A stretch of 64,000 bases of DNA, taken from positions 198,213 to 262,212 of the forward strand of contig CBDFLT010000007.1 of assembly GCA_965249225.1 (NCBI GenBank), read 5' to 3'. The position numbers were made by a program, and so were the translations under genes. Positions 9,030 through 38,569 of this stretch are shown piece by piece. This stretch comes from Dehalococcoidia bacterium (GTDB lineage: Bacteria; Chloroflexota; Dehalococcoidia; Lucifugimonadales; G963668185). Numbering within the stretch: the stretch's first letter is position 1; each line of letters starts with the position of its first letter. Below the pieces are notes generated by a model that saw only the letters and a program-made list of their open reading frames with translations, had not been told where the DNA came from and did no database searches.

Positions 9030-9040
9030 TCTAATTCTCC

Positions 9041-10092: not shown

Positions 10093-10131
10093 CGGGCCCG
10101 GGAGTTCAGAGCGAGCTAGACGGTGTCGGAA

Positions 10132-11541: not shown

Positions 11542-11907
11542 CTACGGTGCTGGGTCTGCCTCAGGCCCAGGGGCTACCTTTTTGATGATCCGAAGGAGCT
11601 CATCGCCCTGTTCAATCGAATGATCGATAAAGAAGTTCAGAGATGGGACCGTCTTGAGGCTAACGTACGGCCGCAGGCTTCTGCGAATAAAGCCCGACGC
11701 CGACTTGAGCGCCTTTAGTGTTTTACGCTTCTCCTGCTCGTCGCCAAGCACGCTGACGAAGACTTTAGCCAATCTCAGGTCGGAAGAGGTCTCGACCCGG
11801 GTGATGCTCACCATCGGATGCAGACGCGGATCTTTGAGCTTGAAGGTCAACATGCTGCTGATCTCTTGGCGCAACAAGACGTTAACGCGGTCCATCCGGC
11901 GGCTCAT
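11542..11907 (-). CDS. rbfA: ribosome-binding factor A
   Basis: RMDRVNVLLRQEISSML...DPRL..VSITRVETSSDLRLAKVFVSVLG. Confidence 0.9.
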   Translation of the reverse strand: MSRRMDRVNVLLRQEISSMLTFKLKDPRLHPMVSITRVETSSDLRLAKVFVSVLGDEQEKRKTLKALKSASGFIRRSLRPYVSLKTVPSLNFFIDHSIEQGDELLRIIKKVAPGPEADPAP

Positions 11908-11969
11908 ATGAGGAACCTCTTGCTGGGTGCTGACAGAGGGACAGGCGACCGGTGGTCAACTAGAGACGC

Positions 11970-13814
11970 CTACTCGATTCGATGCGCCTCTAGGACGTCG
12001 CCTTCTTCGTAGCCTTGATAGCCTTCGAGGACTAAGCCACCTTCGAACCCATTGGTGACCTCTCTGACGTCGTCCTTGAAGTGCTTGAGGCTGACCACTG
12101 TCCCAACGTACAGAGATTCGCCGTTTCGCAGAACGTGGATAATGGAGTTTCGAGTTATGTGGCCATCATTGACGTAGAAGCCTGCGGCCCTGGTCCTCCG
12201 ACCAAGGCCGAATATGGCTCTCACCGTTGCGACCCCTTCGACGATGTCTTGCTGGACCGGCTCGAGAAGACCTTCAAGGGCCTTTTCGATGTCCTCGGTG
12301 AGGGCGTAGATGACGTCGTAGAAGCGTATCTCCACGCTCTCTTGATTGGCCATTGCCAGAGCGCCGGGCTCCGGCTTCGTGTTGAACCCTATGACGATGG
12401 CGTTGGAGGCGACCGCCAGCATTACGTCGCTCTCAGTGATACTAGCGGTGGCGATGTGTACCAGGTTAACCCTTGTCTGATCGGTGTTGAGTCCCTCGAG
12501 TGCGCTGCGCACCGCGTCGACACTGCCCTGTACGTCCGTCTTGACGATCAGGTTGAGGGACTTGACCTCACCGGACTCCATCCTGGAGTGTACGTCCTCT
12601 AAAGTAACACCCCCTCGGGCGCTCAGCTCATGCCGCCTCTGCCGCTCGCGGTCCTCCACCATCTTTTTTGCGGTCTTCTCATCAGGGACGGCGTACAGAA
12701 GGTCTCCTGCTTGTGGAATGTCCCCGAGGCCCAGGACCTCCACGGGCTGTGAGGGCCCCGCTTCCTTAATACGCTGGCCGCGGTCGTTGAACATGGCCCT
12801 CACCCGGCCGTGACGCTCCCCCGCTACCACGTTGTCGCCGATACGCAGGGTGCCAGTCTGTACCAGCACCGTCGTTACCGGACCCTTGCTCTTGTCCAGA
12901 CGTGCTTCGATGACCACGGCCTGTACCGACCGATTCGGGTTGGCCTTGAGCTCGTTAACCTCGGCCACCACTTGGATGTTCGCCAGCAGATCGTCGACTC
13001 CATCTCCTGCCAATGCTGACACCGGAGCCGCTATGACGTCGCCACCCCACTCCTCGATGAGCAGCTCATGCTCAGACAACTGCCTCTTGACCTTTTCCTG
13101 GTCGGCGTTGGGCTTGTCGATCTTGTTAATGGCGACGATGATTGGGACGCCGGCGGCTTTAACATGGTCGATGGCTTCCTCGGTCTGTGGCATGATCCCG
13201 TCGTCGGCGGCAACGACCAGGATCGCCACGTCGGTTACCTGGGCGCCCCGCGCTCGCATGGCGGTAAACGCCTCGTGGCCAGGCGTGTCGATAAAGGTGA
13301 TTAAATTGCCGTCGTGTTCCACCTGGTAAGCGCCTATGTGCTGGGTTATCCCACCGCTCTCAGCGGCGGCCACATTGGCCTTACGTATGGTGTCGAGAAG
13401 AGTCGTCTTGCCGTGGTCGACATGGCCCAGGATGGTCACGACGGGGGGCCGAGGCTCGAGAGCCTCCTGGTCCTCCTCCTTAGTGGAGACCACGAGCGAG
13501 GCGGGTCCGATATTCTGGTCGGCAAGCGGCTGCACTTGGTAACCTAGCGACTGGGCTATCAGCGCGGCAGTATCGTGCTCTACCACCTCGTTGATCGTAT
13601 ACATGTGGCCTTGCCGCATGAAGACCTTGATCAGCTCAACGACGTCAACGTGCATGATCGTGGCAAGGTCGGACACTGTGAGGGCGGCGGGGATTTCCAG
13701 GACCGCCGTGCCAGCCACGTCGCCTGTTGCAGCAACCTGAGCTGGCTGGGGCGCAGGGTCGGTGCTCACGGCTCCCTGTTGTGGGTCTTCATGCTTTGTA
13801 GCCCTGTTAGCCAT
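11970..13814 (-). CDS. infB: translation initiation factor IF-2
   Basis: GTPase motifs [25 protein letters not shown] and NKID, plus the C-terminal IF-2 domains. Confidence 0.95.
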
Positions 13815-22563: not shown

Positions 22564-23621
22564 TGTCGAATCTGCTCCGTAACCCCAGAATCGTAACGGT
22601 CTTCGTCGTTCTGGGGATTCTCTTTCTCGTCGGCCTCGCCGGTGGAGCGCTCGGGAACGAGTTCGGCGGCGGATTCATCGGCTCCCCCATCCCCCACCTT
22701 CAGCTAGCAGCAGAGTCGATCACTTCCGAAGAGCTGTTCCCCGGTTTCGAGCTCACCAATACCATGGTGGCAACATGGCTCACCATCTTGATACTGGTGG
22801 TCCTCTCTTTCTCAGCCACACGCAGAATGAAGGAGGTTCCCAGAGGTCTCCAGAACCTCTTTGAAGTAATTATCGAGTTCTTCCTGAACTTGGCTGAGAG
22901 CGTGGCCGGACCCGCCAGGGCCCGGCGGTTCTTTCCCCTGGTTATGACCATCTTCATCTTCATCGTGTCGGCCAACTGGGTGGGAATCCTTCCTGGGTTC
23001 GGGACCATAGGGAGGGTGGAGGCACCTGAGGAGGTCATCCATCACGCCCGGGAAGGCGATGAGAATGTCGACCTCGCTGATCTTAGGCTCCAGCTGTTTG
23101 ACGGCGAGGGCTCGCTCGCCCTGGTGCAGTTTGGAACCGTTGACGACGTGATCACCGCTGAGGAATGGGAGCGCGACGGCGTGGAAGAGGGCAAGCAGGC
23201 CGGCCGGCTGGCGCCTTTCCTGCGCAGCGCCAATACCGACATTAACACGACCCTCGCCATCGCGCTTGTCGCCATGTTCATGGTCCACTGGTGGGCTATC
23301 AGGACCCTGGGTATCTTTAGTCACGTGGGCAAGTTCATCAACCTCAAAGCGGGCCCTGTTTGGATATTCGTGGGGATCCTGGAGGGTATCAGCGAGTTTG
23401 CCCGGATCATCAGCTTCAGCTTTCGTCTCTTCGGCAATATCTTTGCCGGCGAGGTTCTGCTGGTGGCGATGGCCTTTATGGTGCCCTTGGTCGGTATCAT
23501 CCCGTTCCTGGGCCTGGAGCTTTTCGTGGGTTTGATCCAGGCGTTTATATTCTCGATGCTCACACTGGTGTTCGCCACGACGGCAACCACGGAGGTCAGC
23601 CATGGTGCGGAGGGGCACTAG
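22563..23621 (+). CDS. atpB: F0F1 ATP synthase subunit a (with ~70-aa loop insertion)
   Basis: C-terminal signature ISFSFRLFGNIFAGEVLL contains the essential Arg. It has multiple TM helices and sits at the expected operon position. Confidence 0.9.
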   Translation: MSNLLRNPRIVTVFVVLGILFLVGLAGGALGNEFGGGFIGSPIPHLQLAAESITSEELFPGFELTNTMVATWLTILILVVLSFSATRRMKEVPRGLQNLFEVIIEFFLNLAESVAGPARARRFFPLVMTIFIFIVSANWVGILPGFGTIGRVEAPEEVIHHAREGDENVDLADLRLQLFDGEGSLALVQFGTVDDVITAEEWERDGVEEGKQAGRLAPFLRSANTDINTTLAIALVAMFMVHWWAIRTLGIFSHVGKFINLKAGPVWIFVGILEGISEFARIISFSFRLFGNIFAGEVLLVAMAFMVPLVGIIPFLGLELFVGLIQAFIFSMLTLVFATTATTEVSHGAEGH

Positions 23622-23697
23622 GGGCAGGATTAGATCCGCTGTGAGTGGGTAATCCACTGAGGTGTTCATGTTGACACGGAGAATGATTGAGAAGTAG

Positions 23698-23961
<264 letters not shown>

Positions 23962-24034
23962 TTCGGTTACGCGGGGTTTCGGCCATATAGCCCATTTGTT
24001 GGGGTCTTATATATTGGCGAGGTAAGGAGAGAGT

Positions 24035-24538
24035 ATGCACGCCTTGGGAATCAACTTGACAGGCCTGGTTACTCAGGTCGTCAGTTTTCTGATCCTGTTC
24101 GCGGTCCTGTACAAGCTCCTCTACAAGCCTATCCTGCGCATGCTCGACACGCGGTCTGCTCGAATCAAAGAGAGTCTCGAGACCGCCGACAGGGTGCGGG
24201 AGGAAGCCGTCCGATCTCAAGAGGAGTTGCAGCAGCAGATCGAGGCGGCGCGGGCGGAAGGCCAGGCGATGATCTCCCAGGCCAAGGAGGTGGGGGAAAA
24301 GTATCGGGAGGAGGAGCTGACCAAGGCGAGGGCCGAGATCGGGGCGGCTAGGGCGCGGGCCGAGGCCGATATACAGAGCGAGAGGGACGCGGCCATAGAG
24401 GAGCTCCGGCGTGAGTTCGCAGGGCTGGCGATTTCGGCGGCGGAGCGCATAGTAGAGCGCTCGCTCGACGAGTCGTCGCATCGCGACCTCATCGAGAAAG
24501 TCCTGGACGAGGGCTCGCAGGTCGTTAAGAGGTCATAA
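24035..24538 (+). CDS. atpF: F0F1 ATP synthase subunit b
   Basis: An N-terminal TM helix followed by a long charged coiled coil, at the expected operon position. Confidence 0.9.
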   Translation: MHALGINLTGLVTQVVSFLILFAVLYKLLYKPILRMLDTRSARIKESLETADRVREEAVRSQEELQQQIEAARAEGQAMISQAKEVGEKYREEELTKARAEIGAARARAEADIQSERDAAIEELRREFAGLAISAAERIVERSLDESSHRDLIEKVLDEGSQVVKRS

Positions 24539-24561
24539 GGGATACGGGATAGGACATAACA

Positions 24562-25104
24562 ATGCCCAAGGGTGGCTCCGCCCGCCGATACGCGCAGGCG
24601 GTCTTCCAGTTGGCGTTTGAGAGAGATGAACTGGACGCGTGGAGGGACGACCTGGGTGTCATGGCGCGGGCGCTTCAAGACGAGGAGCTGACCCAGTTGC
24701 TGGACGCCCCCCACGTGCCCATCGAGCGGAAGCTGGACACCGTCGGCCGGGTGCTGGACGATTCCGTAGGCACGTTGCCTCGAAACATGCTCTCGCTTCT
24801 GGCGTCGCGAAACAGGTCGCATCTGGTACCTGCCATCCTCGATCGTTATTCTGCATTGCTCGACGCCCATCGTGCGATCGAGCGCGCCGAGGTCGTGTCG
24901 GCCGTGGAGCTGAGTGATGTCCAGCGAGAGAAGGTTGCGGACCTTTTGAGGGAGATCGTCGGTAAGGAGATACGGCTGACGTCCCGCGTGGACCCCCAGG
25001 TTCTCGGTGGACTGGTTGCGCGCGTCGGCGACCGGATAATCGACGGCAGCACCAGATCGAGGCTGGAGGGACTTCGCCAGAGCCTTGGTGGGCCGGTCTC
25101 CTAA
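24562..25104 (+). CDS. atpH: F0F1 ATP synthase subunit delta
   Basis: ARRYAQAVFQLA... and a C-terminal IIDGSTRSRL motif typical of OSCP/delta. Confidence 0.9.
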   Translation: MPKGGSARRYAQAVFQLAFERDELDAWRDDLGVMARALQDEELTQLLDAPHVPIERKLDTVGRVLDDSVGTLPRNMLSLLASRNRSHLVPAILDRYSALLDAHRAIERAEVVSAVELSDVQREKVADLLREIVGKEIRLTSRVDPQVLGGLVARVGDRIIDGSTRSRLEGLRQSLGGPVS

Positions 25105-25227
25105 TTGTAGAGTGCAGATAGACTTCAATATGGTGTCTAAAACTAAAATACCGTTCTATTCGGTCTGGTCGTGCGTGATGGGCATTCCGTTGCAGGCCCG
25201 CCGGTGGCATGAGCTAGGGAGGTAGGC

Positions 25228-26739
25228 ATGGCAGTCGGTGGACAGGACATAGCGTCCGTAATCAAGAAGCAGATAGAGGAGTTCGGCCAGCCGCTCACGA
25301 TGGTGGACGTCGGTGTGGTGGTCGAAGTGGGCGATGGCATTGCTCGCATCCACGGCCTTTCGGGCGTCAGCTACAGCGAGCTGCTGGAGTTTACGGGGGG
25401 TGTCATAGGTATGGCGCTTAACCTGGAAGAGGACCAGGTGGGCGCCGTCATCCTTGGTGACCCCCTGGAAATCAAGGCGGGCAGCGAGGTCAGGGCCACC
25501 GGCCGGATCGTCCAGGTACCGGTTGGAGACGCGCTTGTAGGTCGGGTGGTGGACGCTCTTGGAAGGCCCCTGGATGGGAAAGGCCCGATCAAGACCGACA
25601 AGGTGCGTCCGGTGGAGGTAGTGGCGCCCGGGGTAGCCACTAGGAGTTCCGTGAACACTCCGGTGCAGACGGGCGTCAAAGCCATCGACGCCATGATTCC
25701 CATCGGCCGGGGACAGCGAGAGTTGATAATCGGCGACCGGTCGACGGGTAAGAGCATGCTCGCCATCGACGCCATCATCAATCAGAAAGGCGGCGACCTG
25801 CTTTGCATCTACGTGGCTATTGGCCAGAAGGTGGGGAAGGTGGCGCAAACGGTGGCCTTGTTCGAGGAGCACGGCGCAATGGAGCACACCATCGTCGTTG
25901 CGGCCACTGCCGCCGACCCCGCGCCCATTCAGTACCTGGCCCCTTATGCCGGCTGTTCCATGGGTGAGGAGGTCATGCACCAGGGCAACGACGCTCTCAT
26001 CGTGTACGATGATCTCTCCAAGCACGCCTGGGCCTACCGGCAGATGTCCCTGCTTCTGCGGCGCCCCCCGGGGCGCGAGGCCTACCCTGGTGATGTGTTC
26101 TACCTTCACAGCCGGCTGCTGGAGCGGGCCGCCAGGCTGGACGATGCCCATGGCGGCGGCTCCTTGACGGCCCTGCCAATCATCGAGACCCTGGCGGGCG
26201 ACGTATCAGCTTACGTCCCCACCAACGTGATCTCCATCACCGACGGCCAGATCTATCTCGAGACCGAGCTGTTCAACTCCGGCATCAGGCCTGCGGTTAA
26301 CGCTGGGCTGTCGGTATCGAGAGTAGGAGGCGCGGCTCAGACACGGGCCATGAGACAGGTGGCAGGTCAGTTGCGGCTGTCCCTTGCCCAGTACCGCGAG
26401 CTGGTTACCTTCGCCCAGTTCGGCACCGCCGACCTGGATCGTGCAACGCGGGCCCAGCTCGAACGAGGACAGCGCGCCATGGAAGTCCTCAAGCAGGGGC
26501 AGAACGCTCCCTTGCCCATGGAGCAGCAGGCCTGCATCCTGTACGCTCTGGTTAATGGGCACTTAGACGATGTTGAGATCTCGAAGGTCAGGGCGTTCGA
26601 AGAGGGCCTAAGGGGTTACATGAGCACCAACCGGCCGGAGACGCTGAAGAAGATCGCGGAGGAGGGGGAAATCACCTCGGACACAGACGCCTTGCTCAAG
26701 GAGGCGCTGAAGGAGTTCAAGGCCAGCATTCCACACTAG
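25228..26739 (+). CDS. atpA: F0F1 ATP synthase subunit alpha
   Basis: Walker [16 protein letters not shown], and the overall alpha signature. Confidence 0.97.
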
Positions 26740-26816
26740 ACTTGCTTCGCGGTCAGGGGTCTTCATCCACTTGGGGGTGGGGCTCAATGAACGGACAAAT
26801 GTAGCCAGGACTAAAT

Positions 26817-27674
26817 ATGCCCAGCGAGAGACAGATCAGACGCCGTATTCGCAGCGTCCAAAACACAGCCAAAATCACTAAGGCCATGTCCATGATCGCC
26901 GCCTCGAAGATGCGTCGCGCCCAGGAGATGGCCCTGATGGGCCGTCCCTACCACGATCGGATGCGGGAGCTTCTGGCGGACCTGGCGGCCCAGCCACAGG
27001 AGGAGGAAAATGCCCATCCACTTCTTCAGCGGCGTGAGGTTAAAAGGGTGGAGCTGGTGCATATCACTCCTGATCGAGGCCTGACCGGCGGCCTGAACTC
27101 CAACCTGAATCGTCGTTCCGGGCAGTTTATCCTCGACCACGACGGCAAGGTGAGTGTTGTGGCGGTTGGCCGAAAAGGGCGGGACTTTATGGTCAGGTAC
27201 CGTCGAGATGTGCGGGCCGTATTCATAGACCTGGGGGACCGGCCTACGCTCGCCGACATGACCCCCATAGCCCACCTCGTCATCGAGGAATATACCGAGC
27301 GGCGCGTGGATGCCGTTTACGTTACCTTCGCGAACTTCATCAATACCACGGTGCAGAGGCCTGAGGTGGTGCAGCTTCTCCCGGTCAAGCCTGCGGATTT
27401 GAGGCCCCAGGAGGCCGTAGGCTACATATACGAACCCGACAGCCTACCGGTGCTCTCGGCGCTGCTTCCCAGATTCGTCGAGATGCAGCTGTATCACCTG
27501 GTTCTCGAGGGGATCGCTAGTGAGCAGTCGGCCAGGATGGTCGCCATGCGCAACGCCACCGACAACGCCAGCGTCATGGTCGATGACCTGACGCTGGAGA
27601 TGAACAAAATCCGCCAGGAGACGATAACCAGTGATCTCCTTGACATCATCGGGGGAGTGGCGGCGCTCGAATAA
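26817..27674 (+). CDS. atpG: F0F1 ATP synthase subunit gamma
   Basis: IRRRIRSVQNTAKITKAMSMIAASKMRRAQ and a C-terminal ITSDLLDIIGG. Confidence 0.95.
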   Translation: MPSERQIRRRIRSVQNTAKITKAMSMIAASKMRRAQEMALMGRPYHDRMRELLADLAAQPQEEENAHPLLQRREVKRVELVHITPDRGLTGGLNSNLNRRSGQFILDHDGKVSVVAVGRKGRDFMVRYRRDVRAVFIDLGDRPTLADMTPIAHLVIEEYTERRVDAVYVTFANFINTTVQRPEVVQLLPVKPADLRPQEAVGYIYEPDSLPVLSALLPRFVEMQLYHLVLEGIASEQSARMVAMRNATDNASVMVDDLTLEMNKIRQETITSDLLDIIGGVAALE

Positions 27675-27697
27675 GGGACGAAAACACCCTGTGTTAG

Positions 27698-29128
<1,431 letters not shown>

Positions 29129-29258
29129 GCTGAGTCAATACGTAGGCTGTGATTCTTGATCGGTGGTTAGTCTAGCAAGTACCTTGCTGGCAATTGAGGG
29201 AAGTGAGGGTTGATGTTCAGAGAATCCAATCGAGTAGGTCCAGCCTACACCGGAAAAC

Positions 29259-29287
29259 TTGACAAATCATGTTCCAACACTTTAATT
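29259..29287 (+). promoter_or_regulatory. sigma70-like promoter inside the atp operon, upstream of the cassette (TTGACA-16 nt-TTTAAT)
   Basis: ttgaca at 29259-29264 and tttaat at 29281-29286 (or ttaatt at 29282-29287), about 35 nt upstream of the cassette ATG at 29322. Confidence 0.45.
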
Positions 29288-29321
29288 TGGAACAAACGTT
29301 CTCACAAACTGCGAATCCTAT

Positions 29322-30185
29322 ATGCCGCCCTGTACTTTCATAAAGGAATACCAATTGGACCGGCACCAGGGCTGGCTGAGAGTGAATATCACCTATGCAG
29401 GTAATATTCGGTTTCCGTTCTCTCAGCTAGTCAGAGCGGCCTTTCCTCAAATTGAAGTATGGCCTGAGTCTGGGGCTAGTGCAGTGGCCCTGATCTTAGA
29501 TTTGGAGGAGACTTTTCGGATAACACAGTCTGAGGATTTAGACCGCGAAACCTTTACGAAATTCCTAGATCTGCTCAAGAGACACATTGCCATTGATGAC
29601 TCCTTGGATGAGAGCCACGCGCTGGCTCCCCACAGTCTTCCCCCCGAAGGTGAAGAATGGAATCGTACTAGCATGGGGAAGCTGGTTAAAAAAGCTAAAT
29701 CTTATTACGGTGAGGCAGCTTACAAAGACAAACAAGCCGCCAAAGAGATTTGTATGCTCCTTCTCAATTTTATTAATAGCCATCCGCGCTACCGGAGGGC
29801 AGATATTCTGGTACCTGCTCCGTCATCGAATCCAGCAAGGACTAAAACGCTGTCATTAGCATTGTCAAAGGCCATCTCCAAGCGTCTAGAGAAACGTCTT
29901 GTCACACCCGTACGTCTAAAGCCGATACCACCGCAGAAAGACTATGAAGAGGGTACGTCTGGAGTTCCTCGTTCAGAAGTGCAGAAAGGCACAGTGGACA
30001 TCGCAGAGTCCATGCAAGGTAGCCACGCCATCATCATCGACGACCTTTATGATTCAGGTGAGACCCTTAAAGAGGTCGCTCGGGCGTGTCGCGAAGCTGG
30101 CGCAATGTCTGTGCTGGGTCTGACTGTGACTAAGAATGCTACGTTCACCCAGGGGATGGATCTAACGGAGTGGCCATGGGGATAG
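29322..30185 (+). CDS. ComF-like type I phosphoribosyltransferase with unrecognised ~150-aa N-terminal domain
   Basis: The C-terminal half reads ...RRADILVPAPSSNPARTKTLSLALSKAIS...GSHAIIIDDLYDSGETLKEVARACREAGAMSVLGLTVTK. It has the PRPP-binding loop (acidic pair + small residues + T) and ComFC-like layout. An in-frame TAA at 29283 fixes the ATG at 29322 as the only possible start. Confidence 0.75.
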   Translation: MPPCTFIKEYQLDRHQGWLRVNITYAGNIRFPFSQLVRAAFPQIEVWPESGASAVALILDLEETFRITQSEDLDRETFTKFLDLLKRHIAIDDSLDESHALAPHSLPPEGEEWNRTSMGKLVKKAKSYYGEAAYKDKQAAKEICMLLLNFINSHPRYRRADILVPAPSSNPARTKTLSLALSKAISKRLEKRLVTPVRLKPIPPQKDYEEGTSGVPRSEVQKGTVDIAESMQGSHAIIIDDLYDSGETLKEVARACREAGAMSVLGLTVTKNATFTQGMDLTEWPWG

Positions 30186-31183
30186 ATCAGAAACTATTCT
30201 GGCTGGGCCTGCATAAAGCACTCTCTCCACATCCGGCCCTTCTGCATATGGTAGGCATCGCATGCGAGAGTGACGTTACTCGTCTGGCTGAATTCACTGG
30301 AGCGGAGCTAGACGAATTGTTCGGGGAGGATGCCACTAAGATAGAGTCAGCTCTTGCTCGGGTGGAAGAGGCAACTAATGATTGGGAAGAGCTCAAAGAG
30401 AAAGGTGTGCAAGTCGTCCCGATTACCGATGCCAGATATCCCGAGAAGCTAAGGGAAATGCCAAGTTCCCCTCCCATCATTTATGTGCTAGGTAATCTTT
30501 CGTTCTCGAACCAACGTGCCATCAGCATATGTGGTTCAAGACACGTATCTGAAGAGGGGCTAGAGTTTGCTAAATCTTTTGGCTCTCTCGCAGCGGAACT
30601 TAACTTAGTTGTGGTGAGTGGTTTTGCAAGTGGCGTAGATACCGCTGCTCACTTGGGTGCCCTGGGGTCGAACGGGAGAACTATAATTGTACTGGCGGAA
30701 GGTATAAGCAATTTCCGATTGAAGAAACCGTTTAATACACTGGGCGATTTTTATGATCGAGCAGTGGTGATATCGGAGTTCTATCCCAAAAACATATGGC
30801 AAGTTTCAAGGGCGATGACCAGGAACAGAACCATATGTGGTCTTTCTGAAGCCTTGGTTGTTGTCGAAGCCGGTGCTCGCGGCGGAACTCTTGCGGCCGG
30901 GAGGGAATGTATTGAGCAGCGTAAACCGCTCCTAGTTGTAGAGCGATCTACGCCAGGAAAGACGGCTCCAGGAAATCGCACACTCATAAATGAAGGAGGG
31001 ATTGCATTACATGAATCGAGAGAGTTGAAGTCTGCACTTTCTGATATTTCCATGGGCTTGGAGTTGAATCACAGAGACCGGATCGGTCGTCCAGACAACT
31101 TAGAATCTCTATCTAATGTAGCTGTGGAGCGGCAGTTGGCTTTCAAAGAAAGTAAGCCTCAGGATAGCGAGTCGACCTACTAG
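30170..31183 (+). CDS. DprA/Smf-like (SLOG-fold) DNA-processing-family protein
   Basis: DprA Rossmann motifs: ISICGSRHVSEEG, LVVVSGFASGVDTAAHLGAL, TIIVLAEGI, MTRNRTICGLSEALVVVEAGARGGTLAAGRECIEQRKPLLVV. It overlaps the upstream ORF by 16 nt (ATGGCCATGGGGATAG). Confidence 0.8.
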   Translation: MAMGIDQKLFWLGLHKALSPHPALLHMVGIACESDVTRLAEFTGAELDELFGEDATKIESALARVEEATNDWEELKEKGVQVVPITDARYPEKLREMPSSPPIIYVLGNLSFSNQRAISICGSRHVSEEGLEFAKSFGSLAAELNLVVVSGFASGVDTAAHLGALGSNGRTIIVLAEGISNFRLKKPFNTLGDFYDRAVVISEFYPKNIWQVSRAMTRNRTICGLSEALVVVEAGARGGTLAAGRECIEQRKPLLVVERSTPGKTAPGNRTLINEGGIALHESRELKSALSDISMGLELNHRDRIGRPDNLESLSNVAVERQLAFKESKPQDSESTY

Positions 31184-31201
31184 CGTGATGCAGGATCAAC
31201 G

Positions 31202-31645
31202 ATGCCCACCATGAAATTTGAGATAGTCACTGCGGAGAGGGTTGTTTACTCCGATGACATCAACGTTCTCGTGGCGCCCGGCATCGATGGTGAGCTAGCG
31301 ATTCTGCCGCGTCACGCCCCGCTTCTCACCGTTCTCAAGCCGGGCGAAATTCGCGTGGTCAAAGACGGTGAAGAGACCTTCATGGCCGTAAGCGGCGGGT
31401 TCCTGGAGGTTTTGGGAAACAAGGTGGTCATTCTCGCCAACACCGCCGAGCGCGTCGATGAGATCAACCTCCAGCGTGCCGAGGAGGCGGTGCAGCATGC
31501 CCAGGAGCAGCTGGCCTCGGCTTCCGCAGATGAGGACCTCGAGCAGGCAATGGCGTCGCTCAGGAGGTCCCAGGCACGGGTGGCGGTGGCCCGACGCAGG
31601 GGACCTAGGAGGGAGAGAGGGCCGGGACCCGCACCTCCGGGATGA
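31202..31645 (+). CDS. atpC: F0F1 ATP synthase subunit epsilon
   Basis: MKFEIVTAERVVYSDDINVLVAPGIDGELAILPRHAPLLTVLKPGEIRV...SGGFLEV. It starts only 18 nt after the cassette stop. Confidence 0.9.
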   Translation: MPTMKFEIVTAERVVYSDDINVLVAPGIDGELAILPRHAPLLTVLKPGEIRVVKDGEETFMAVSGGFLEVLGNKVVILANTAERVDEINLQRAEEAVQHAQEQLASASADEDLEQAMASLRRSQARVAVARRRGPRRERGPGPAPPG

Positions 31646-31675
31646 CAGATCGCCAGAATCGGATCAGCATCTGCT

Positions 31676-31704
31676 AGCCCCGCCAACGCGGGGCTTTCCG
31701 TTTC
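31676..31704 (+). terminator. intrinsic terminator after atpC
   Basis: 8-bp stem agccccgc/gcggggct with loop caac, followed by ttccgtttc. Confidence 0.6.
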
Positions 31705-31708
31705 AATT

Positions 31709-32332
31709 CTACCGCGCTAGGTAGAAGGTCATGGACTGTAGGGACAGGACCGGATCGATGTTCCTCATGATGAAGTTTTCTGGTAGGTTCGGCGCGATAG
31801 GGGCGTAATTCAGAATACCGCGAATCTGACTTTCGGCCAGCCGGTCTATTACTGTCTGCGCCTCCGAGGAGGGGACCGCAATGATGCCGATGCTGATGTT
31901 TTTCTCCACGGCCGTTTGGTTGAGTTCCGACATAGGTTGAACCCGCAGGCTGCCAATGGTGCTGTTTACCTGTTTTGGATCGCTGTCGAAAGCGGCGACG
32001 ATCCTGAATCCCTCCGGGGAGAAGCCGGGGTAGTTGATGATGGCTCTACCTAGGCGCCCCACTCCCACAAGGCACGCATACCACTCACGGTCCAGGGCCA
32101 GGATACGCCTTAGCTCCTCCTTCAGAAACTGAACGTTGTAACCTCTGCCCTGCTTGCCGAATCTTCCGAAGTAGCTCAGGTCTTTCCTGATCTGAGCAGA
32201 GGTCATCTGGAGTCGCTTCCCAAGCTGCTGGGAGCTAACCACTTGGTCTCCCTCTGAGAGAAGCTGTGTCAGGGCCCTAACATATAGAGGCAGCCTGAGA
32301 ACAACCACTTGAGGGACTTCGACGCGAGCCAT
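31709..32332 (-). CDS. rex: redox-sensing transcriptional repressor Rex
   Basis: LRLPLYVRAL...SSQQLGKRLQMTSAQIRKDLSYFGRFGKQGRGY and the Rossmann motif LVGVGRLGRAI. Confidence 0.9.
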   Translation of the reverse strand: MARVEVPQVVVLRLPLYVRALTQLLSEGDQVVSSQQLGKRLQMTSAQIRKDLSYFGRFGKQGRGYNVQFLKEELRRILALDREWYACLVGVGRLGRAIINYPGFSPEGFRIVAAFDSDPKQVNSTIGSLRVQPMSELNQTAVEKNISIGIIAVPSSEAQTVIDRLAESQIRGILNYAPIAPNLPENFIMRNIDPVLSLQSMTFYLAR

Positions 32333-32604
32333 TGACCTCCTCTACTACCACGCTTTACCTGTGAGTGCTTTGGGCCTCTACTCGATGAAGCCGCCACCTC
32401 GAACCCACTTTAGGGGAGAAGGCGTGGCTATTTTAGTTGTTGGAAATCACTGCGTCAATTTTGTGTGAAGCTTGTAACTACCTGGTGCCACGCCGCCGTG
32501 ATTAGGAGACCGCCGATGCGCATCGTTAGGCCGAAGGGCAAGGCGTCTTGTCCGTCGAACCTGCGGCGATAATCCCAAGGCCCTCGCCGCACCGTGCTGC
32601 TTGG

Positions 32605-32634
32605 TTGACACGCCCCTGCCCAAAATGCTAATAT
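32605..32634 (+). promoter_or_regulatory. sigma70-like promoter upstream of citrate synthase (TTGACA-18 nt-TAATAT)
   Basis: ttgaca at 32605-32610 and taatat at 32629-32634, about 145 nt upstream of the ATG at 32778. Confidence 0.4.
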
Positions 32635-32777
32635 TGCCACGCCCTCGCCGTTGCTAGGTAACTGGGGGAGCATCGTCGAGCTTCCACGTTAAAGCTGGCC
32701 TGTGGGTAGTTCGTACCTTCTTTCAACTGTCCAGATGGCGCAGGGAGAGGCACCGAATCAGGACGGAGAGCAGGAAG

Positions 32778-33920
32778 ATGGCGGGAGAAGAGAAGGTCGA
32801 GCTCCATCGGGGCCTTCGAGATATCTATATCGATCGGACTGAGTCCAGCCACATAGACGGTGCGTCGGGCAAGCTCCTCTATCGTGGGTACACTATCCAC
32901 GACCTCGCTCAAAACTCTACCTTCGAAGAGGTCGTCTACCTACTGCTTTACGGCTCTCTTCCGACTACCAGCCAGCTCGAGCGATTTGATGCCGAGCTGA
33001 AAGCTAATAGAGAGCTGCCGGCCCAGGTCTTCGAGGTAATCCACCTAGTCAAGGACGCGCATCCAATGGATGTCCTGCGTACCGCCGTCTCAGCCCTCTC
33101 CGCCTTCGATCCCGATGTGTCCGATAACTCGTTGGAAGCCACCCGTAGCAAGGGAATCCGTCTAACAGCCAAGGCTCCCACGGTGGTTGCCGCTCACGCC
33201 AGGATACGCGACGGCCAGGAGACGATCGCGCCCGACGGAAGCCTCGGGCATGCGGCCAATTTTTTGAATATGCTTCTCGGAGAGGCCCCGGACCCTGAGG
33301 ATGCTGCGCTGATGGACAAGGACTTTGTACTTCACGCCGAGCATGGGGTAAACGCTTCGTCTTTTGCCGCGCGCGTCGCCGCATCCACTCTGGCCGATCT
33401 TCATAGCGCCGTCGCCGCAGCTATCGCAGTCCTCAAGGGGCCATCTCACGGAGGCTCCGCCGAGGGAGTGATGAAGATGGCGCTGCAGATCGGTGATGAG
33501 GCCAATGCTGAGCCGTACGTAAAAAACCTTCTGAAGAACGGCGGCAGAGTGATGGGATTCGGACACCGGGTCTACAAGTCCGCCGACCCCAGGGCCAAGC
33601 ATTTGAAGGAAGGGACCAAGGCGCTGGGAGAGCGCAAAAACCAGCCTGGGTGGTTTTCCATTCTCCAGGCTGTCGCCAGGGTGATGGAGCCGTACGAGGA
33701 GCGTGGCATCTACGAGAACGTGGACTTCTGGTCTGGTGCCATGTACTACCTTCTGGGAATTCCCGACGACATCTTCATCTCTATCTTCGCGATGGGACGC
33801 ATACCGGGGTGGACCGTGCAGGTCACCGAGCAGTTTCAGAACAACATCCTCCTGCGGCCCAGGTTGCTTTACGTGGGCCCCATGGACCTCGAATACAAAC
33901 CGATTGAGCAGCGCTCCTGA
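32778..33920 (+). CDS. gltA: citrate synthase (type I, ~380 aa)
   Basis: LYRGYTIHDLA..., HAEHGVNASSFAARV, GPSHGGSAE, GFGHRVYKSADPRA catalytic His/Asp contexts. Confidence 0.9.
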   Translation: MAGEEKVELHRGLRDIYIDRTESSHIDGASGKLLYRGYTIHDLAQNSTFEEVVYLLLYGSLPTTSQLERFDAELKANRELPAQVFEVIHLVKDAHPMDVLRTAVSALSAFDPDVSDNSLEATRSKGIRLTAKAPTVVAAHARIRDGQETIAPDGSLGHAANFLNMLLGEAPDPEDAALMDKDFVLHAEHGVNASSFAARVAASTLADLHSAVAAAIAVLKGPSHGGSAEGVMKMALQIGDEANAEPYVKNLLKNGGRVMGFGHRVYKSADPRAKHLKEGTKALGERKNQPGWFSILQAVARVMEPYEERGIYENVDFWSGAMYYLLGIPDDIFISIFAMGRIPGWTVQVTEQFQNNILLRPRLLYVGPMDLEYKPIEQRS

Positions 33921-33944
33921 CTGTAGGATTGTCGGAGGACCTCA

Positions 33945-34163
33945 ATGGCTTACTCTTTTGAAAAGGGACCGGCCGTGAGCGAACAGGATGCAATGGACTT
34001 GGAATGTAATCATCACTGGCTGATCGCGAGCCCCAACGGGCCCACCAGCCAGGGACGGTGCAAGCTGTGCGGTCAGCATGCGAATTTCAATAACTCGTTC
34101 GCGGAGACCGGCTGGGACGGAAACGGCGCGCATCGCAGGCGCGTGGGGCAGGTCCGAAAGTGA
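33945..34163 (+). CDS. small Cys/His-containing hypothetical protein (72 aa)
   Basis: GGAGGA lies 5 nt upstream of the ATG. The sequence has C-x-HH...CxxC spacing (ECNHHW...GRCKLCG), suggesting a zinc-binding mini-protein. No family is recognised. Confidence 0.45.
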   Translation: MAYSFEKGPAVSEQDAMDLECNHHWLIASPNGPTSQGRCKLCGQHANFNNSFAETGWDGNGAHRRRVGQVRK

Positions 34164-34255
34164 GCGTCGGATAGCTCTGCTGACCGAGCCCAGAACAGAC
34201 ACTGGAAGCAGCTGCAAGAACAGCTTGTGGCCGCCTGCTCCATGATCCTCGCCCC

Positions 34256-35512
34256 ATGTCGACACAGCACCGCACCGTAAACACCGCTGCAGAAGATGAG
34301 ATCAGGGCTAGGATCGCCTCGTCAGGCAGGATAACCTTCGCCGAGTTCCAGGAACTGGCCCTGTATCACCCGAACGGCGGGTACTACGCGGCTCAGCGCG
34401 CGGTGGGCGCTGAAGGCGATTACTTTACCAGTCCAACCGCGCACCCAGCCTTCAGTGCGCTGATGGCCGTACAGGCCCGACGCATGTGGCAACTCCTGGG
34501 GCGGCCCTCTCCTTTCACTCTCGTTGAAATAGGCGCGGGTGGCGGCCTCATGGCGCGAGACCTGCAGAACTACGCCTCCACGCTGGATGCTGCGTTCTGC
34601 GATTCGCTTCGGTACATCGGGCTGGAAAGATACAGTGTCGACGGCTTCTCCGTCCGGCAGACGCCAATCCCGCAGCGCATAGTGGCCGAAACCGTACCGT
34701 TGAATAGGGTCGTGGGGTGCGTTTTCTCCAACGAACTGGTGGACGCGTTTCCGGTCCATCGCTTTGAGATCCAGGACGGTACGGTGAGGGAGGTCTATGT
34801 GACCGCTCAGGGCGCCGGGTTCACCGAGGTGCTGGGCGAGCCGTCCACGCCGCTTCTTGAGAGGCGCCTGGAGCGGCTTAACTTTGAGCTACCCGAGGGT
34901 TCCCGTGGAGAGGTAAACCTGGGCATCAAACCTTGGATGAGCGAAGTGGCGAGCTCTCTGGGAAGGGGCTTCGTTATCACGGTCGACTACGGCTTCGAGG
35001 CGCGAGACCTGTACTCGCCGGAAAGGTCGAAAGGAACTATCCAAACGTACTTCCGCCACACGCCTGGGGGCAGTCCGTACCAACGCGTAGGCCGCCAGGA
35101 CATCACCGCCTTCGTCGACTTTTCAGAGATCGTTACAGAAGGCGAGTCCGTGGGACTCCGGCCCATAGCGCTGATGAGCCAGGCCCGTTTTCTAAGAAGC
35201 CTGGGATTCGACCGAATGCTGGAACGCCTGGGACAGCGGCAGCTCGAATCCGTCGAATTCTCCGCGAACCGCGAGGCCATGCTGGAAATCATCAAGCCAG
35301 AGGGTCTCGGTGGATTCAAAGTGCTGGTCCAGGAGCGGGACACCGGTGTGGAAGCCGCCGAACAGATCGCGCCTGCTAGCGGCGATGTTGCTGCCCTCGA
35401 GGTCCCCCTGTTGGGTCCAGATCACCTGCCTCTGATGGAGGGGCGTTTCCCTCGCACGGCGTGGGAGCTGGAGCATCTGTGGCCACCGGAAGAGGACTGG
35501 CCTGGGAAATGA
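34256..35512 (+). CDS. MidA/NDUFAF7-family (DUF185) SAM-dependent methyltransferase
   Basis: ITFAEFQELALYHPNGGYY...GDYFTSPTAHPAF...LVEIGAGGG...SNELVDAFPVHRF. Confidence 0.8.
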   Translation: MSTQHRTVNTAAEDEIRARIASSGRITFAEFQELALYHPNGGYYAAQRAVGAEGDYFTSPTAHPAFSALMAVQARRMWQLLGRPSPFTLVEIGAGGGLMARDLQNYASTLDAAFCDSLRYIGLERYSVDGFSVRQTPIPQRIVAETVPLNRVVGCVFSNELVDAFPVHRFEIQDGTVREVYVTAQGAGFTEVLGEPSTPLLERRLERLNFELPEGSRGEVNLGIKPWMSEVASSLGRGFVITVDYGFEARDLYSPERSKGTIQTYFRHTPGGSPYQRVGRQDITAFVDFSEIVTEGESVGLRPIALMSQARFLRSLGFDRMLERLGQRQLESVEFSANREAMLEIIKPEGLGGFKVLVQERDTGVEAAEQIAPASGDVAALEVPLLGPDHLPLMEGRFPRTAWELEHLWPPEEDWPGK

Positions 35513-35600
35513 GCGTAGTCGTTCCCGCCCGCCCCGGACCGCATCCGGTCCTTCCTTAAGAAAGAAGGCTCACTAGTGTAGTCGGGATCTGCGGTATGTC

Positions 35601-36452
35601 CTAGGCGGCCTCGCTATCGTCTCCGTTGTCGGCCTCTTCCGCCGGGTGCGTCGGCTCACACTTTCGCGCCGTGGTGATGAACCCCGTGTGTCCTACCATA
35701 CGGTGGTTCGGCCGAATGGTGCGGGCACCCACCGTCCATGGCCGCATCAAGACCTCGTGAGTCTCGATCACGTCGAAGGCCTGCTCCTTCAGGGCGAGGG
35801 TAAAGTCGCGCACCTGCATCACCGTTGGCAGGAATCCCAGGATTATTCCACCCGGCACCAGCGCCTCCGACGCGTGGGGGACAACGTGCCACGGCTCGGC
35901 TAGATCGAGCACGATCCTGTCCAGGTCCCTTTCCTCGAAGCCCTCATACACGTCCCCAAGCTTGACGGTGAGGTTCTGATGCTCCGGGTGCATGGCGCTG
36001 ATATTGCTCATAGCCCGGTCGATCATGTCGCTACGCACATCGTAGGAAGTGACCGATCCTCGGTCGCCCACGGCGCGCAGCAGAGTGATGGTCACCGCCC
36101 CTGAGCCGGTTCCGGCCTCCAGCACCCTGGCTCCGGGAAAGATGTCCCCATAAATGAGGATCGCCCCCAGGTCCTTAGGGTATACGACGGTGGCGATGCG
36201 GGGCATGTCCCTCGTAAAGTCCCCCAACGTAGGCTTCAGCGCCAGCAGCCGGTGGCCCTGCGCGGTCTTCACTCTCGACCCCACGTCTCGGCCGATGAGG
36301 TCGGTGTGAGGAAAGTTGCCTAGGTGTGAGTGGAAGGCGCCTGAGGACTTAAGTTGGACCAGGTATCTCCGCCCTCGGCGGTCAATTATCAGGGCGAAGT
36401 CACCCTCCTTGAAGATGTGTCTGGAGGACATTTCGGGACCGCTTCTAGACAC
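35601..36452 (-). CDS. trmI: tRNA (adenine-N1)-methyltransferase TrmI/Gcd14 family
   Basis: FKEGDFALIIDRRGRRYLVQL...H.G.F.H.DLIG and the SAM motif VLEAGTGSGAVT. Confidence 0.8.
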   Translation of the reverse strand: MSRSGPEMSSRHIFKEGDFALIIDRRGRRYLVQLKSSGAFHSHLGNFPHTDLIGRDVGSRVKTAQGHRLLALKPTLGDFTRDMPRIATVVYPKDLGAILIYGDIFPGARVLEAGTGSGAVTITLLRAVGDRGSVTSYDVRSDMIDRAMSNISAMHPEHQNLTVKLGDVYEGFEERDLDRIVLDLAEPWHVVPHASEALVPGGIILGFLPTVMQVRDFTLALKEQAFDVIETHEVLMRPWTVGARTIRPNHRMVGHTGFITTARKCEPTHPAEEADNGDDSEAA

Positions 36453-36476
36453 TCAAACGTGGTCGCACAACGGGTC

Positions 36477-36935
36477 CTACAAACCGCTGACGCGGGCCAG
36501 GACATCGGCGACGTCGAGATAGGACGCTGAGCGATAGACCCTTCTGAAGCGCACGATGCCATCCCTGTCGATAATGAACACGGCCCGCTTGGACACGCCG
36601 GTTTCCTGGTCAAATATGTCGTAAAGCTGGGCCACCTGACCGTGAGGGTAGAAGTCGGACAGAAGAGGGTAGGGCAGGCTGCCCAGGGAGGTCGCATAGG
36701 CGGCCTGTACCGGCTGTGGGTCTGTGCTTATACCCAGGACCTGGGCATCCTTCTCCTTGAACTTCCGGTTCGCCGCTCGGAACAAGGAGACCTGGTCCGT
36801 TCAGCCGCTTGTAAACGACGAGATGTGGAACGAAAGGACGACGTTCTTGTCGCCTTGGAATTGGCTGAGGGACACGTCTTTGTTAGTGTGCGAGGGCACC
36901 GTGAAGTCGGGCGCCGGTTCTCCTACGTCGACCAT
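36477..36935 (-). CDS. AhpE/Prx-like peroxiredoxin with in-frame UGA at the peroxidatic Cys position (putative selenoprotein; alternatively a pseudogene)
   Basis: Own translation from ATG 36935 (AAGGAGGA 6 nt upstream): MVDVGEPAPDFTVPSHTNKDVSLSQFQGDKNVVLSFHISSFTSG-[TGA 36803-36801]-TDQVSLFRAANRKFKEKDAQVLGISTD... This continues in frame into track ORF 36477..36785. The TGA sits in the T-x-x-C motif. Confidence 0.65.
36752..36790 (-). promoter_or_regulatory. SECIS-like stem-loop 10 nt downstream of the peroxiredoxin UGA
   Basis: TCTCCTTG-TTCCG-[AGCGGCGAAC]-CGGAA-(GTT bulge)-CAAGGAGA. This gives 13 bp, with the apical loop at +24..+33 from the UGA and a G as the second loop nucleotide. Confidence 0.5.
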
Positions 36936-37072
36936 AAGATTCCTCCTTCTAAGAGCGCGACGGTAATTTGAGGGGCCGAGGAATTACTCTATCGATGGCG
37001 AACCAAGGCCGCTCCCTGCGGCCAAGATACACCACCGGCAGGACACGATGGAACCCTCTTCCGGGCGTTCCG

Positions 37073-38569
37073 TTACACTCGTTTCCAGCGGAGATCGGGC
37101 TGGCGTGCCGCGCGTGCCTCGTCCAACCTGGTGTTGGGTGTGTCGTGTGGTGCCTCGTGAAGCAGTTCGGGACTTTCTCTGGCCTCCTCCGCGATCCTCT
37201 TCATCACGGCAATGAAGCCGTCCAGCGTCTCCTTCGACTCGGTCTCCGTGGGCTCGATCATTAGCGCCTCGGCCACGATTAGCGGGAAGTACATGGTGGG
37301 AGGGTGGATGCCGTAGTCGATGAGTCGCTTTGCCACATCCAGCGCGCTTACGCCGTGGCCTCGCTGTAGGTTCTTCGCCGAGAAGACCACCTCGTGCATG
37401 CAGACCCGGTCGTAGGGCAGGTCGTAATAGCCCTTTAGCTGACTCAGGATGTAGTTGGCGTTGATTACCGCGTCCTCGCTGATCTGCGAGATGCCCTTAT
37501 CGCCTAGAAGGCTTATGTACGTGTAGGCGCGCACCAGAACCCCGAAATTGCCCTGGTAGGCGCCCAATCTGCCGATAGTCTTAGGAGGTGCTTCGAGGTT
37601 GTAATGTTCCCGGCCATCCTCTGACTGCCGCTGCACCACTACGGGGGTGGGGAGGAACGGCTTCAACCTATCTGCCACCATAACCGGCCCCGCCCCGGGC
37701 CCTCCTCCGCCGTGGGGGGTGCTGAAGGTCTTGTGCAGGTTAGAGTGCACCACGTCGAATCCCAGGTCCCCCAGCTTGACGCGGCCGAGCAGCGCGTTCA
37801 AGTTGGCCCCGTCGCCGTACACGATGCCGCCAGCCTCTCGCACGATGCGGCACACCTCCAGGATGTTGGTATCGAACAGACCCAAGGTGCTGGGGAGGGT
37901 CAGCATTATCCCCGCCAGGTCGCGGTCGGCCGCCTCTCTGAGCGCGTCCAAGTCCGCGTTGCCCTGGGCGTCGGATGGAAGCGTAACTACCTCGAACCCA
38001 GCCATGTCGGCGGACGCCGGGTTAGTCCCATGAGCGCTGTCAGGGATCAGAACGTTCTTTCGGTGGGAGTCTCCGTTGGCCAGGTGAAAGGCCCTGACCA
38101 TCAGCATCCCTGTCAGCTCTCCGGCCGCCCCCGCCATCGGAGCCAGGCTGGTCGCGGCCATTCCAGTTATCTCCGCCAGGTAGTCCTGCAACTGGAACAT
38201 GAGCTTGAGAGCGCCCTGTACCGTGGACGCCGGCTGGAGGGGGTGTATCTGGGACATCCCTGGTACGCTGGCCATCTCGTCGTGCAGCTTGGGATTGTAC
38301 TTCATGGTACAGCTGCCCAGCGGGTAGTAGTTGGTATCTATTGAGAAGTTGAGCTGGCTGAGCTGTGAGAAGTATCTGACCAGCTCCCCTTCGGTCACCT
38401 CCACAAAGTCGAACTCGTGACGCAAAAGCTCCGCCGGCGGCAATACGTGCTTCGGCACATCCAGTGGAGGCAGTGTGGTTCCTATGCGCCCAGGCACACT
38501 GCGGTCCATGAGTAGCCTGCGACGACCGTCGTCGATCTCAATCTGTGTGGTTGTCATGACGCTCGTCAC
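37073..38569 (-). CDS. gcvPB: glycine dehydrogenase (aminomethyl-transferring) subunit 2
   Basis: 498 aa, with the PLP-lysine context NLHKTFSTPHGGGGPG. It follows gcvPA with a 4-nt overlap. Confidence 0.93.
   Translation of the reverse strand: MTSVMTTTQIEIDDGRRRLLMDRSVPGRIGTTLPPLDVPKHVLPPAELLRHEFDFVEVTEGELVRYFSQLSQLNFSIDTNYYPLGSCTMKYNPKLHDEMASVPGMSQIHPLQPASTVQGALKLMFQLQDYLAEITGMAATSLAPMAGAAGELTGMLMVRAFHLANGDSHRKNVLIPDSAHGTNPASADMAGFEVVTLPSDAQGNADLDALREAADRDLAGIMLTLPSTLGLFDTNILEVCRIVREAGGIVYGDGANLNALLGRVKLGDLGFDVVHSNLHKTFSTPHGGGGPGAGPVMVADRLKPFLPTPVVVQRQSEDGREHYNLEAPPKTIGRLGAYQGNFGVLVRAYTYISLLGDKGISQISEDAVINANYILSQLKGYYDLPYDRVCMHEVVFSAKNLQRGHGVSALDVAKRLIDYGIHPPTMYFPLIVAEALMIEPTETESKETLDGFIAVMKRIAEEARESPELLHEAPHDTPNTRLDEARAARQPDLRWKRV

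Follow-up and report, generated by a model that had tools for sequence, protein, structure and literature searches.

How does a pair of genes come to lie inside the operon of the ATP synthase, and what might it do there? This question is raised by a stretch of 64,000 nucleotides from a Dehalococcoidia bacterium (contig CBDFLT010000007.1 of assembly GCA_965249225.1, positions 198,213 to 262,212 of the forward strand; hereafter the window, in whose own numbering all positions are given), in which the atp operon is complete and in which the 2,073 bp from the atpD stop codon (29126-29128) to the atpC start (31202) hold two open reading frames (ORFs) on the same strand, just where an earlier note on this DNA had placed them. 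On balance, we favor the view that these genes, hereafter ORF1 and ORF2, form a self-contained accessory module of a phosphoribosyltransferase (PRTase) toxin and a DprA-like antitoxin, built on a third toxin architecture, which would act as the ShosTA system does. PRTase/DprA-like toxin-antitoxin pairs are already known as a kind of defense system; what is new is the private N-terminal domain of this toxin architecture, the conserved nesting of the pair, across a Chloroflexota clade, between the genes of the F1 beta and epsilon subunits with presence and absence within one species, and the conserved LexA-type box that precedes the pair.

A PRTase and a DprA-Like Protein Encoded by Overlapping Genes

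PRTase/DprA-like pairs are a recognized and partly understood class of anti-phage toxin-antitoxin systems, in which a PRTase toxin and an antitoxin homologous to DprA are encoded by adjacent, co-directional genes (Millman 2022; Rousset 2022), with ShosTA and PsyrTA as members, the DprA and PRTase system of the Escherichia coli P2 hotspot being described in PMC9122126. The window pair has this layout, with PF00156 in one protein, PF02481 in the other, both PADLOC partners, and overlapping co-directional genes. The earlier note had called both domains, had quoted several protein motifs, and had pointed to an anti-phage DprA and PRTase pair: the motifs are all present in the translations, the profile matches given below bear out the domain calls, and the link to anti-phage pairs agrees with the PADLOC matches of both proteins as well as with the best fold match of ORF1. 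Its remark that the mechanism of such pairs was not known is outdated (PMC11961720; PMC12961424).

The ATG start of ORF1 is backed by the invariant M1, P2, and C4 of the family alignment, the database copy (P0001; L and P numbers are our own labels) beginning 11 codons later. The overlap of the two genes reads GTGGCCATGGGGATAG, which corrects a one-letter slip in a sequence quoted earlier as beginning with ATGG; its previously stated length of 16 nt presupposes GTG 30170 as the start of ORF2, and ATG 30176, the start found in the database copy P0168, with a GGAG at 30167-30170, would shorten it to 10 nt. The toxin-then-antitoxin order with an overlap of 10-16 nt is found in the window, L001, and L005.

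The C-terminal half of ORF1 carries the PRTase assignment. Pfam PF00156 matches residues 178-264 above its gathering score (E 5e-7), and PADLOC gives PsyrT as the best model (2e-10) and ShosT next (9e-8). A model of the protein made with AlphaFold2 (AF2) from the family alignment (predicted local distance difference test [pLDDT] 83; predicted template modeling score [pTM] 0.84) retrieved through Foldseek three ShosT structures as its top three PDB entries (8zvd, 8zvc, and 8zvb), with PurR, PyrR, and metabolic PRTases ranking below them. Within the loop that would bind phosphoribosyl pyrophosphate (PRPP), the aspartate pair D240/D241 is near-invariant, being kept in at least 90% of the ORF1 family; it corresponds, by motif and not by a printed structural alignment, to D331/D332 of ShosT, which are essential to toxicity (PMC11961720; PMC12961424).

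ORF2 matches PF02481 (E 2e-50), and its best PADLOC model is PsyrA (2.6e-55, 186 bits), with ShosA at 9e-49; its PDB matches are DprA (3uqz) and ShosA (8zva/9vzo). Two of its arginines, R124 and R218, are invariant in 9/9 family members and correspond to R139 and R234 of ShosA, both of which bind single-stranded DNA (ssDNA) and are essential to antitoxin function. A third, R245, corresponds to ShosA R261 and is kept in 6/9 members, and K185, the equivalent of the RecA-contact residue K200 of ShosA, is variable in the family. When L004, L009, L010, and L011 are compared with the window, L001, L002, L003, and L005, the DprA-like partner is seen to occur in two forms, a long one of 320-343 aa with a SAM-like N-terminal domain and a short one of 231-242 aa that starts from the Rossmann domain. 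ShosA was destabilized when its SAM domain was deleted (PMC12961424).

Could the pair instead be the organism's own ComFC and DprA, serving natural transformation? The label "ComF-like" that had been given to ORF1 points that way, and ComFC indeed has the PRTase fold and is reported to interact with DprA (PMC9005727), so that both pairs join a PRTase-fold protein to an ssDNA-binding protein of the DprA fold; ORF1 also weakly matches the comF family TIGR00201 (E 2e-5) and GntX (E 4e-4). However, the comF match scores 24.6 bits against a cut-off of 233.55, and ORF2 reaches 144.4 bits against the 191.15 of the dprA equivalog TIGR00732. The N-terminal four-cysteine zinc finger of ComFC (PMC9005727) is not found in the ORF1 family either, in which C4 is the sole invariant cysteine and CxxC pairs are missing, so that the label does not hold. 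ORF2 lacks the DprA winged-helix domain, and the one match listed in which this domain is present, the canonical DprA P0285, shares only 34% identity with it. To our knowledge, ComFC and DprA do not normally form an overlapping two-gene operon. The pair is, furthermore, dispensable within the species, being absent from a conspecific genome as it is from most relatives, and no com genes lie nearby in the contexts viewed. We therefore consider a competence function highly improbable. On account of the absence from the conspecific genome, we also reject the idea that the pair is merely the housekeeping dprA of the clade; no canonical dprA was found inside the 64-kb window.

A Third Architecture for the Putative Toxin

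The likeness to ShosTA, a type IV toxin-antitoxin system of abortive infection that has also been reported as the DprA and PRTase system of the P2 hotspot, extends over several levels: both are two-gene operons with the toxin first and the antitoxin second, both toxins are PRTases with an aspartate pair in the PRPP-binding site (8zvc, which the ORF1 fold matches, is ShosT with PRPP), and both antitoxins combine SAM and DprA folds with the same ssDNA-binding arginines. The N-terminal domains of the two proteins, by contrast, differ. ShosT is a protein of 424 aa whose residues 1-164 form a pyrophosphatase-like Rossmann domain, whereas ORF1 has 287 aa and an unrelated N-terminal domain, modeled in the order beta-hairpin/alpha/beta/beta/alpha/beta and without a five-stranded Rossmann fold. 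PsyrTA (RqlHI) likewise has a DprA-like antitoxin and a PRTase domain at the C-terminus of its toxin, and the PsyrT model is matched by ORF1 over profile positions 534-685 of 689 only; the large RecQ-like helicase region at the N-terminus of PsyrT/RqlH (PMC4670107) has no counterpart in ORF1, in which Pfam detects no helicase domain.

That the N-terminal domain fits none of the known contexts had been noticed before, and this observation stands, as no fold or sequence relative was found outside the family. When the domain was modeled by itself (pLDDT 81), no PDB neighbor was found at E <= 1e-3 in a library that holds the ShosT entries, and neither Pfam nor PHROG contains a relative. Searching residues 1-140 of ORF1 against 1.84 billion representative proteins with HMMER phmmer returned 30 proteins, nearly all of 270-300 aa and of the ORF1 architecture; two long matches, P0029 and P0034, align over a short stretch only and were set aside as probable low-complexity hits. 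The putative toxin is thus of a third architecture, in which a private domain takes the place of the pyrophosphatase of ShosT or the helicase of PsyrT. Judged from its sequence features, the pair falls outside ShosTA, PsyrTA, and ComFC/DprA in the strict sense, yet within the class of PRTase toxins with DprA-like antitoxins. Current defense finders probably overlook it, because the toxin matches only a portion of the length of their models. Being small, private, and endowed with an invariant D-x-x-D-E-x-H, this domain offers a new handle on the role of the variable N-terminal module in the class.

An Internal Promoter with a Conserved LexA-Type Box

A feature that the earlier note missed lies between atpD and ORF1, where we found an internal promoter of sigma-70 type and, right behind it, a LexA-type box. 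The promoter was read from the sequence, a scanner that demands A at position 2 of the -10 element having missed it. Among the 11 loci with a plausibly native upstream region, 10 show TTGAC(A) 35-74 nt 5' of the ORF1 start, L002 being the one without. The box, GAACAAACGTTC, is a GAAC-N4-GTTC palindrome that covers the predicted transcription start, 4 nt past the -10 element and 20 nt before the ORF1 ATG, and it is the one exact copy of this motif in the window. Of the 12 upstream spacers examined, 10 carry the box with at most one mismatch, 10-30 nt ahead of the ORF1 start (exact in the window, L005, and L006; one mismatch in L001, L002, L008, L009, L010, L011, and L014), the spacers of L003 and L016 having none. 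The spacers are otherwise unalignable, and in 9/10 of those with a box it stands just 3' of TTGAC(A), which L002 lacks. Set against the measured background (3.2e-4 per nt), the binomial P is 6e-16 (9/10) or 1e-10 (6/7), values to be read with the partial non-independence of the loci in mind. The spacers of L012 and L013, which have no cassette, are without the box, and it is present in the non-atp context of L002: it travels with the module. The remaining box-like sites across the loci are all intragenic, with none upstream of repair genes.

GAAC-N4-GTTC is the LexA motif of Bacillus subtilis and other Gram-positive bacteria, PMC3323433 documenting it for Firmicutes and Actinobacteria only. 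The module thus appears to carry a DNA-damage-responsive promoter of its own, with a putative LexA operator. A link to the SOS response would suit the published model of this class, in which the toxin damages DNA and the antitoxin acts through RecA, and, if the operator is true, we know of no earlier hint that PRTase/DprA-like pairs are wired into this response. In E. coli, the toxin-antitoxin modules tisB/istR, symER, dinJ-yafQ, and yafNO are under LexA control. They resemble the present pair in placing a module of toxin-antitoxin type behind a promoter with a LexA operator (putative here) and differ from it in their protein families and in the operator, which is of the Gram-positive GAAC-N4-GTTC type here. 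The accessible descriptions of ShosTA mention no LexA box, and no dedicated search was made for one.

The spacer between atpD and ORF1 is longer in the window (193 nt) than in the other carriers (65-100 nt). It holds neither a terminator nor a significant RNA structure (fold z = -1.06), and atp-operon read-through into the cassette is therefore expected; no evident Shine-Dalgarno sequence precedes ORF1, and Rfam has no match in the cassette segment or in this spacer. The extra ~90 nt of the window (29135-29230) show no Rfam match, notable fold, or ORF, and the idea that 29180-29217 could be a remnant of a native spacer was dropped as too weak.

A Shared Address in the ATP Synthase Operon

Full-length relatives of ORF1 are few, amounting to 23 clusters among 5.8 billion proteins (about 23-30 overall). 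The named relatives come from Chloroflexi metagenome-assembled genomes (MAGs), SAR202-VII-2, and SZUA-185 only, and look-ups of the exact sequences of ORF1, ORF2, P0001, and P0053 gave no match, partly through differences in start codon. We sampled 14 distinct genomic contexts, and in 11 of them the pair occupies the atpD|atpC slot (the window, L001, the P0013 contig, L004, L005, L006, L008, L009, L010, L011, and L014), with 1-4 nt between the ORF2 stop and atpC in L001, L005, and L014. An assembly artifact is ruled out, since the same arrangement occurs in at least 10 independent assemblies. Elsewhere, the pair lies between two GMC-oxidoreductase genes (L002), is flanked by pfkA and pheS in a SAR202 MAG (L003, the same as L007), or is found next to IS630-like elements near ribH (L015-L017). 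The two GMC-oxidoreductase genes were considered as a target duplication and rejected, being old paralogs that are 66% identical.

The composition of the cassette is clearly atypical, as had been noted from its low GC content and its AGA, TTA, ATA, and AAT codons, and our GC profile, third-position GC content (GC3), and codon counts all agree with this. GC is 0.46-0.54 over 29100-31200 versus 0.57-0.65 in the flanks; GC3 is 0.50 in ORF1 and 0.46 in ORF2 versus 0.72 +/- 0.055 in the 54 other ORFs of the window (minimum 0.536), so that the two genes have the lowest values among its 56 ORFs, about 4-4.7 standard deviations under the mean; and the four codons are 1.8-3.9x enriched. Such figures, together with a conspecific genome that lacks the segment and shows a clean junction, would be expected if a foreign defense cassette had entered this atp operon once, recently, and by horizontal transfer, much as the earlier note had proposed. 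Conserved synteny largely refutes this explanation, which we regard as improbable. The carriers that share the slot are deeply diverged, their AtpD being 78-83%, their AtpC 49-65%, and their cassette proteins only 34-50% identical to those of the window (74-90% for AtpD among all carriers). In L001, L005, and L014, too, the cassette falls below the atp genes in GC3, and because it does so in diverged carriers, low GC belongs to the module as a lasting trait and does not mark a recent arrival. No donor more than 51% identical appears among the 5.8 billion proteins; at the junction itself, a diverged imported tract was looked for and not found, and the segment borders show no notable direct or inverted repeats, tRNA, or integrase/recombinase gene. 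What remains of the earlier proposal is that the cassette is atypical in composition, non-core, and absent from a conspecific; that it was a single event does not survive, the slot and the GC3 drop being shared with diverged relatives.

Several observations bear on single carriers. Sample ERZ26167216, from which L005, L013, and the P0013 contig derive, contains two Chloroflexota carriers and a syntenic non-carrier in one metagenome, so that genomes with and without the pair live side by side in a single community. In L011 (88-994), the ORF1 homolog is split over two frames (88-891 and 449-994), as a pseudogene or through an assembly frameshift. A more distant pair stands beside DDE_3/HTH transposase genes in L015 (4640-6000), L016 (5113-5958), and L017 (5212-6000); its ORF2 homolog, P0190, is identical in all three, and its ORF1 homolog, complete in L016, is interrupted by 167 bp of inserted sequence in L015 and, in L017, is without the ~73 codons at its 5' end. 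The decay of the toxin gene next to an intact DprA-like gene is the order expected of a toxin-antitoxin pair, a supportive aside to be taken with caution, as these are long-read assemblies in which indel errors are possible.

An Old and Dispensable Passenger

The comparison of atpD-atpC junctions among relatives, which had been proposed in the earlier note, gave a mixed answer: the cassette, present in the 11 contexts listed above, is absent from L012 and L013. L012 is conspecific with the window. By blastn, its positions 1-5982 correspond to window 23155-29134 (98.5%) and its positions 6002-12444 to window 31203-37645 (98.6%), the synteny is the same over 12.4 kb (rex, citrate synthase, methyltransferase), and its atpD homolog has the PF02874/PF00006 domains; its atpD and atpC are 24 nt apart, and the pair is absent. 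The differences between the two sequences, ~1.4%, are evenly spread. In L013, AtpC is 75% identical, and the pair is missing too. More broadly, relatives of AtpC at 67-93% identity form >100 clusters and so outnumber the ORF1 family by a wide margin. The junction falls on the start codon of atpC, which is ATG in the window (31202) and TTG in cassette-free L012 (6001); a second in-frame ATG follows three codons on in both.

Dispensable as it is, the pair is kept under selection, the omega values of 0.14-0.31 indicating purifying selection on ORF1 and ORF2. In the closest loci, L009 and L011, dS is 0.20 for ORF2 and 0.22 for the adjacent atpC. The divergence of hosts and cassettes is only loosely correlated (Pearson 0.56-0.62), with L001 and L014 as a case in which AtpD is 90% identical and the cassettes only 44-48%. 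The pair is thus a passenger of long standing, dispensable and held by purifying selection, whose history may be either one of old descent with many clean losses or one of old cassette lineages exchanged by recombination through the conserved flanks.

A bolder version of the second history can be imagined, in which the atpD/atpC junction is the safe harbor of a selfish module without recombinase, spreading among Chloroflexota by homologous recombination through the extremely conserved atpD and atpC on either side, possibly aided by its DprA-like protein as RecA loader, switched by the SOS response, and protected by the fact that imprecise deletion cripples the ATP synthase. We give this scenario little credence, although it would explain the fixed address, the presence and absence within a species, the standing AT-richness, and, in view of L001 and L014, a cassette divergence that does not track the host. 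Whichever history applies, islands and hotspots are where one would look for accessory and defense genes (ShosTA itself sits in prophage hotspots), not a highly conserved cellular operon such as atp. A pair that is nested at one junction across deeply diverged lineages and is still segregating within a species offers a natural system for the study of persistence by position.

How the Module May Work, and What Else It Could Be

By analogy with ShosTA, ORF1 would use PRPP to disturb nucleotide metabolism and thereby cause DNA damage, and ORF2 would bind ssDNA and repair this damage with RecA, so that the toxin would be neutralized without contact between the two proteins. ORF2 might then be put out of action by phage ssDNA intermediates or by host shut-off, and ORF1, set free, would abort the infection. 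Read-through from the atp genes could provide a low basal expression, limited by the missing Shine-Dalgarno sequence of ORF1 and by rare codons, and cleavage of LexA after DNA damage would boost the internal promoter. Finally, as atpC begins 1-18 nt downstream, imprecise deletion would harm atpD or atpC, which would favor the persistence of the module.

The alternative that we take most seriously, while holding it unlikely, is that the pair is a domesticated, SOS-inducible accessory of recombination and repair in which neither protein is toxic: the DprA-like protein would load RecA on ssDNA gaps, and the PRTase partner would tune or sense nucleotide/PRPP pools or would handle ssDNA as ComFC does. 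The conserved LexA-type box in front of the pair, the DprA ssDNA-binding arginines that are kept, the long stay at one chromosomal address under purifying selection and in rough co-divergence with the host, and the want of a defense-island or mobile-element context all suit such a role. It accords poorly with a pair that one genome of a species can do without and that most relatives lack, that has an atypical composition in all lineages, and that comes closest, in models and folds, to the toxin ShosT and to the antitoxins PsyrA and ShosA; the decay of the ORF1 homolog next to a persisting DprA-like gene (L015 and L017) points away from it as well.

Several points weigh against the toxin-antitoxin reading itself. 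A domesticated function would equally well explain why the pair has stayed so long at one locus and has diverged roughly in step with its hosts. The ORF1 N-terminal domain is unlike those of both known toxins, the ShosT and PsyrT models cover only the PRTase part of ORF1, and E. coli ShosT is not reached from ORF1 by phmmer or by the family profile. On the antitoxin side, the RecA contact R206 of ShosA corresponds to L191 in ORF2 and is not kept, nor are the dimer residues L181/F182, which correspond to G166/S167; as the cognate RecA differs, these changes do not decide the matter. The ORF1 family was not found in collections of plasmids, phages, and viral contigs, and the contexts viewed hold no neighboring defense or mobile-element genes other than the IS630-like ones at L015-L017. 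Toxicity, rescue, and phage defense are carried over to the pair by analogy. As to the operator, the LexA of Dehalococcoides reportedly uses the same motif, and recognition of GAAC-N4-GTTC by the LexA of Chloroflexota is presumed. With these points counted in, a PRTase toxin paired with a DprA-like antitoxin is still the reading to which we incline.

Surroundings of the Cassette in the Window

The positions of the cassette, its parts, and its flanks are collected in table 1.

Table 1. Coordinates of the features discussed, in window numbering.
Feature	Position	Strand	Remarks
atpD (F1 beta)	27707..29128	+	Upstream flank; product shares 83% identity with AtpD in L001 and L014
Presence/absence segment	29135..31202	+	2,068 bp; 19 bp (CACCTGCAAGGGGTTGTTT) instead in conspecific L012
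Sigma-70-like promoter	29259..29286	+	-35 TTGACA 29259-29264, 16-nt spacer, -10 TTTAAT 29281-29286
Inverted repeat GTTCCAA-N9-TTGGAAC	29271..29293	+	Perfect 7 bp; brackets the -10 element and shares GAAC with the box; window only
GAACAAACGTTC	29290..29301	+	GAAC-N4-GTTC palindrome (LexA/Cheo-box type)
ORF1	29322..30185	+	287 aa; putative PRTase-type toxin
ORF1 N-terminal domain	29322..29630	+	aa 1-103; ~105-aa alpha/beta domain, private to the family
Invariant I-x-D-x-L-D-E-S-H motif	29592-29618	+	End of the ORF1 N-terminal domain (family alignment)
ORF1 PRTase domain	29670..30137	+	aa 117-272
PRPP loop IIIDDLYDSGET	30030-30065	+	In ORF1; contains D240/D241
ORF2	30170..31183	+	337 aa (335 aa from ATG 30176); putative DprA-like antitoxin
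ORF2 SAM-like N-terminal domain	30170-30391	+	
ORF2 DprA Rossmann/SLOG domain	30392-31030	+	Followed by a variable C-terminal tail
atpC (F1 epsilon)	31202..31645	+	Downstream flank; 18 nt past the ORF2 stop in the window
Terminator-like hairpin	31676..31695	+	End of the atp operon; 8 pairs, 7 of them G-C

The strong hairpin behind atpC is common to this gene and to a convergent rex-like gene on the opposite strand (31709-32332), whose L012 homolog has the Put_DNA-bind_N and CoA_binding domains; the convergence of atpC and rex is kept in L005, L012, L013, L014, and the P0013 contig. Farther downstream, a tRNA-Ala(CGC) on the minus strand (55412-55487) is the sole RNA gene that ARAGORN and Rfam detect in the window, and a mechanically called ORF that overlaps it (55327-55746, GC3 0.54) is probably spurious.

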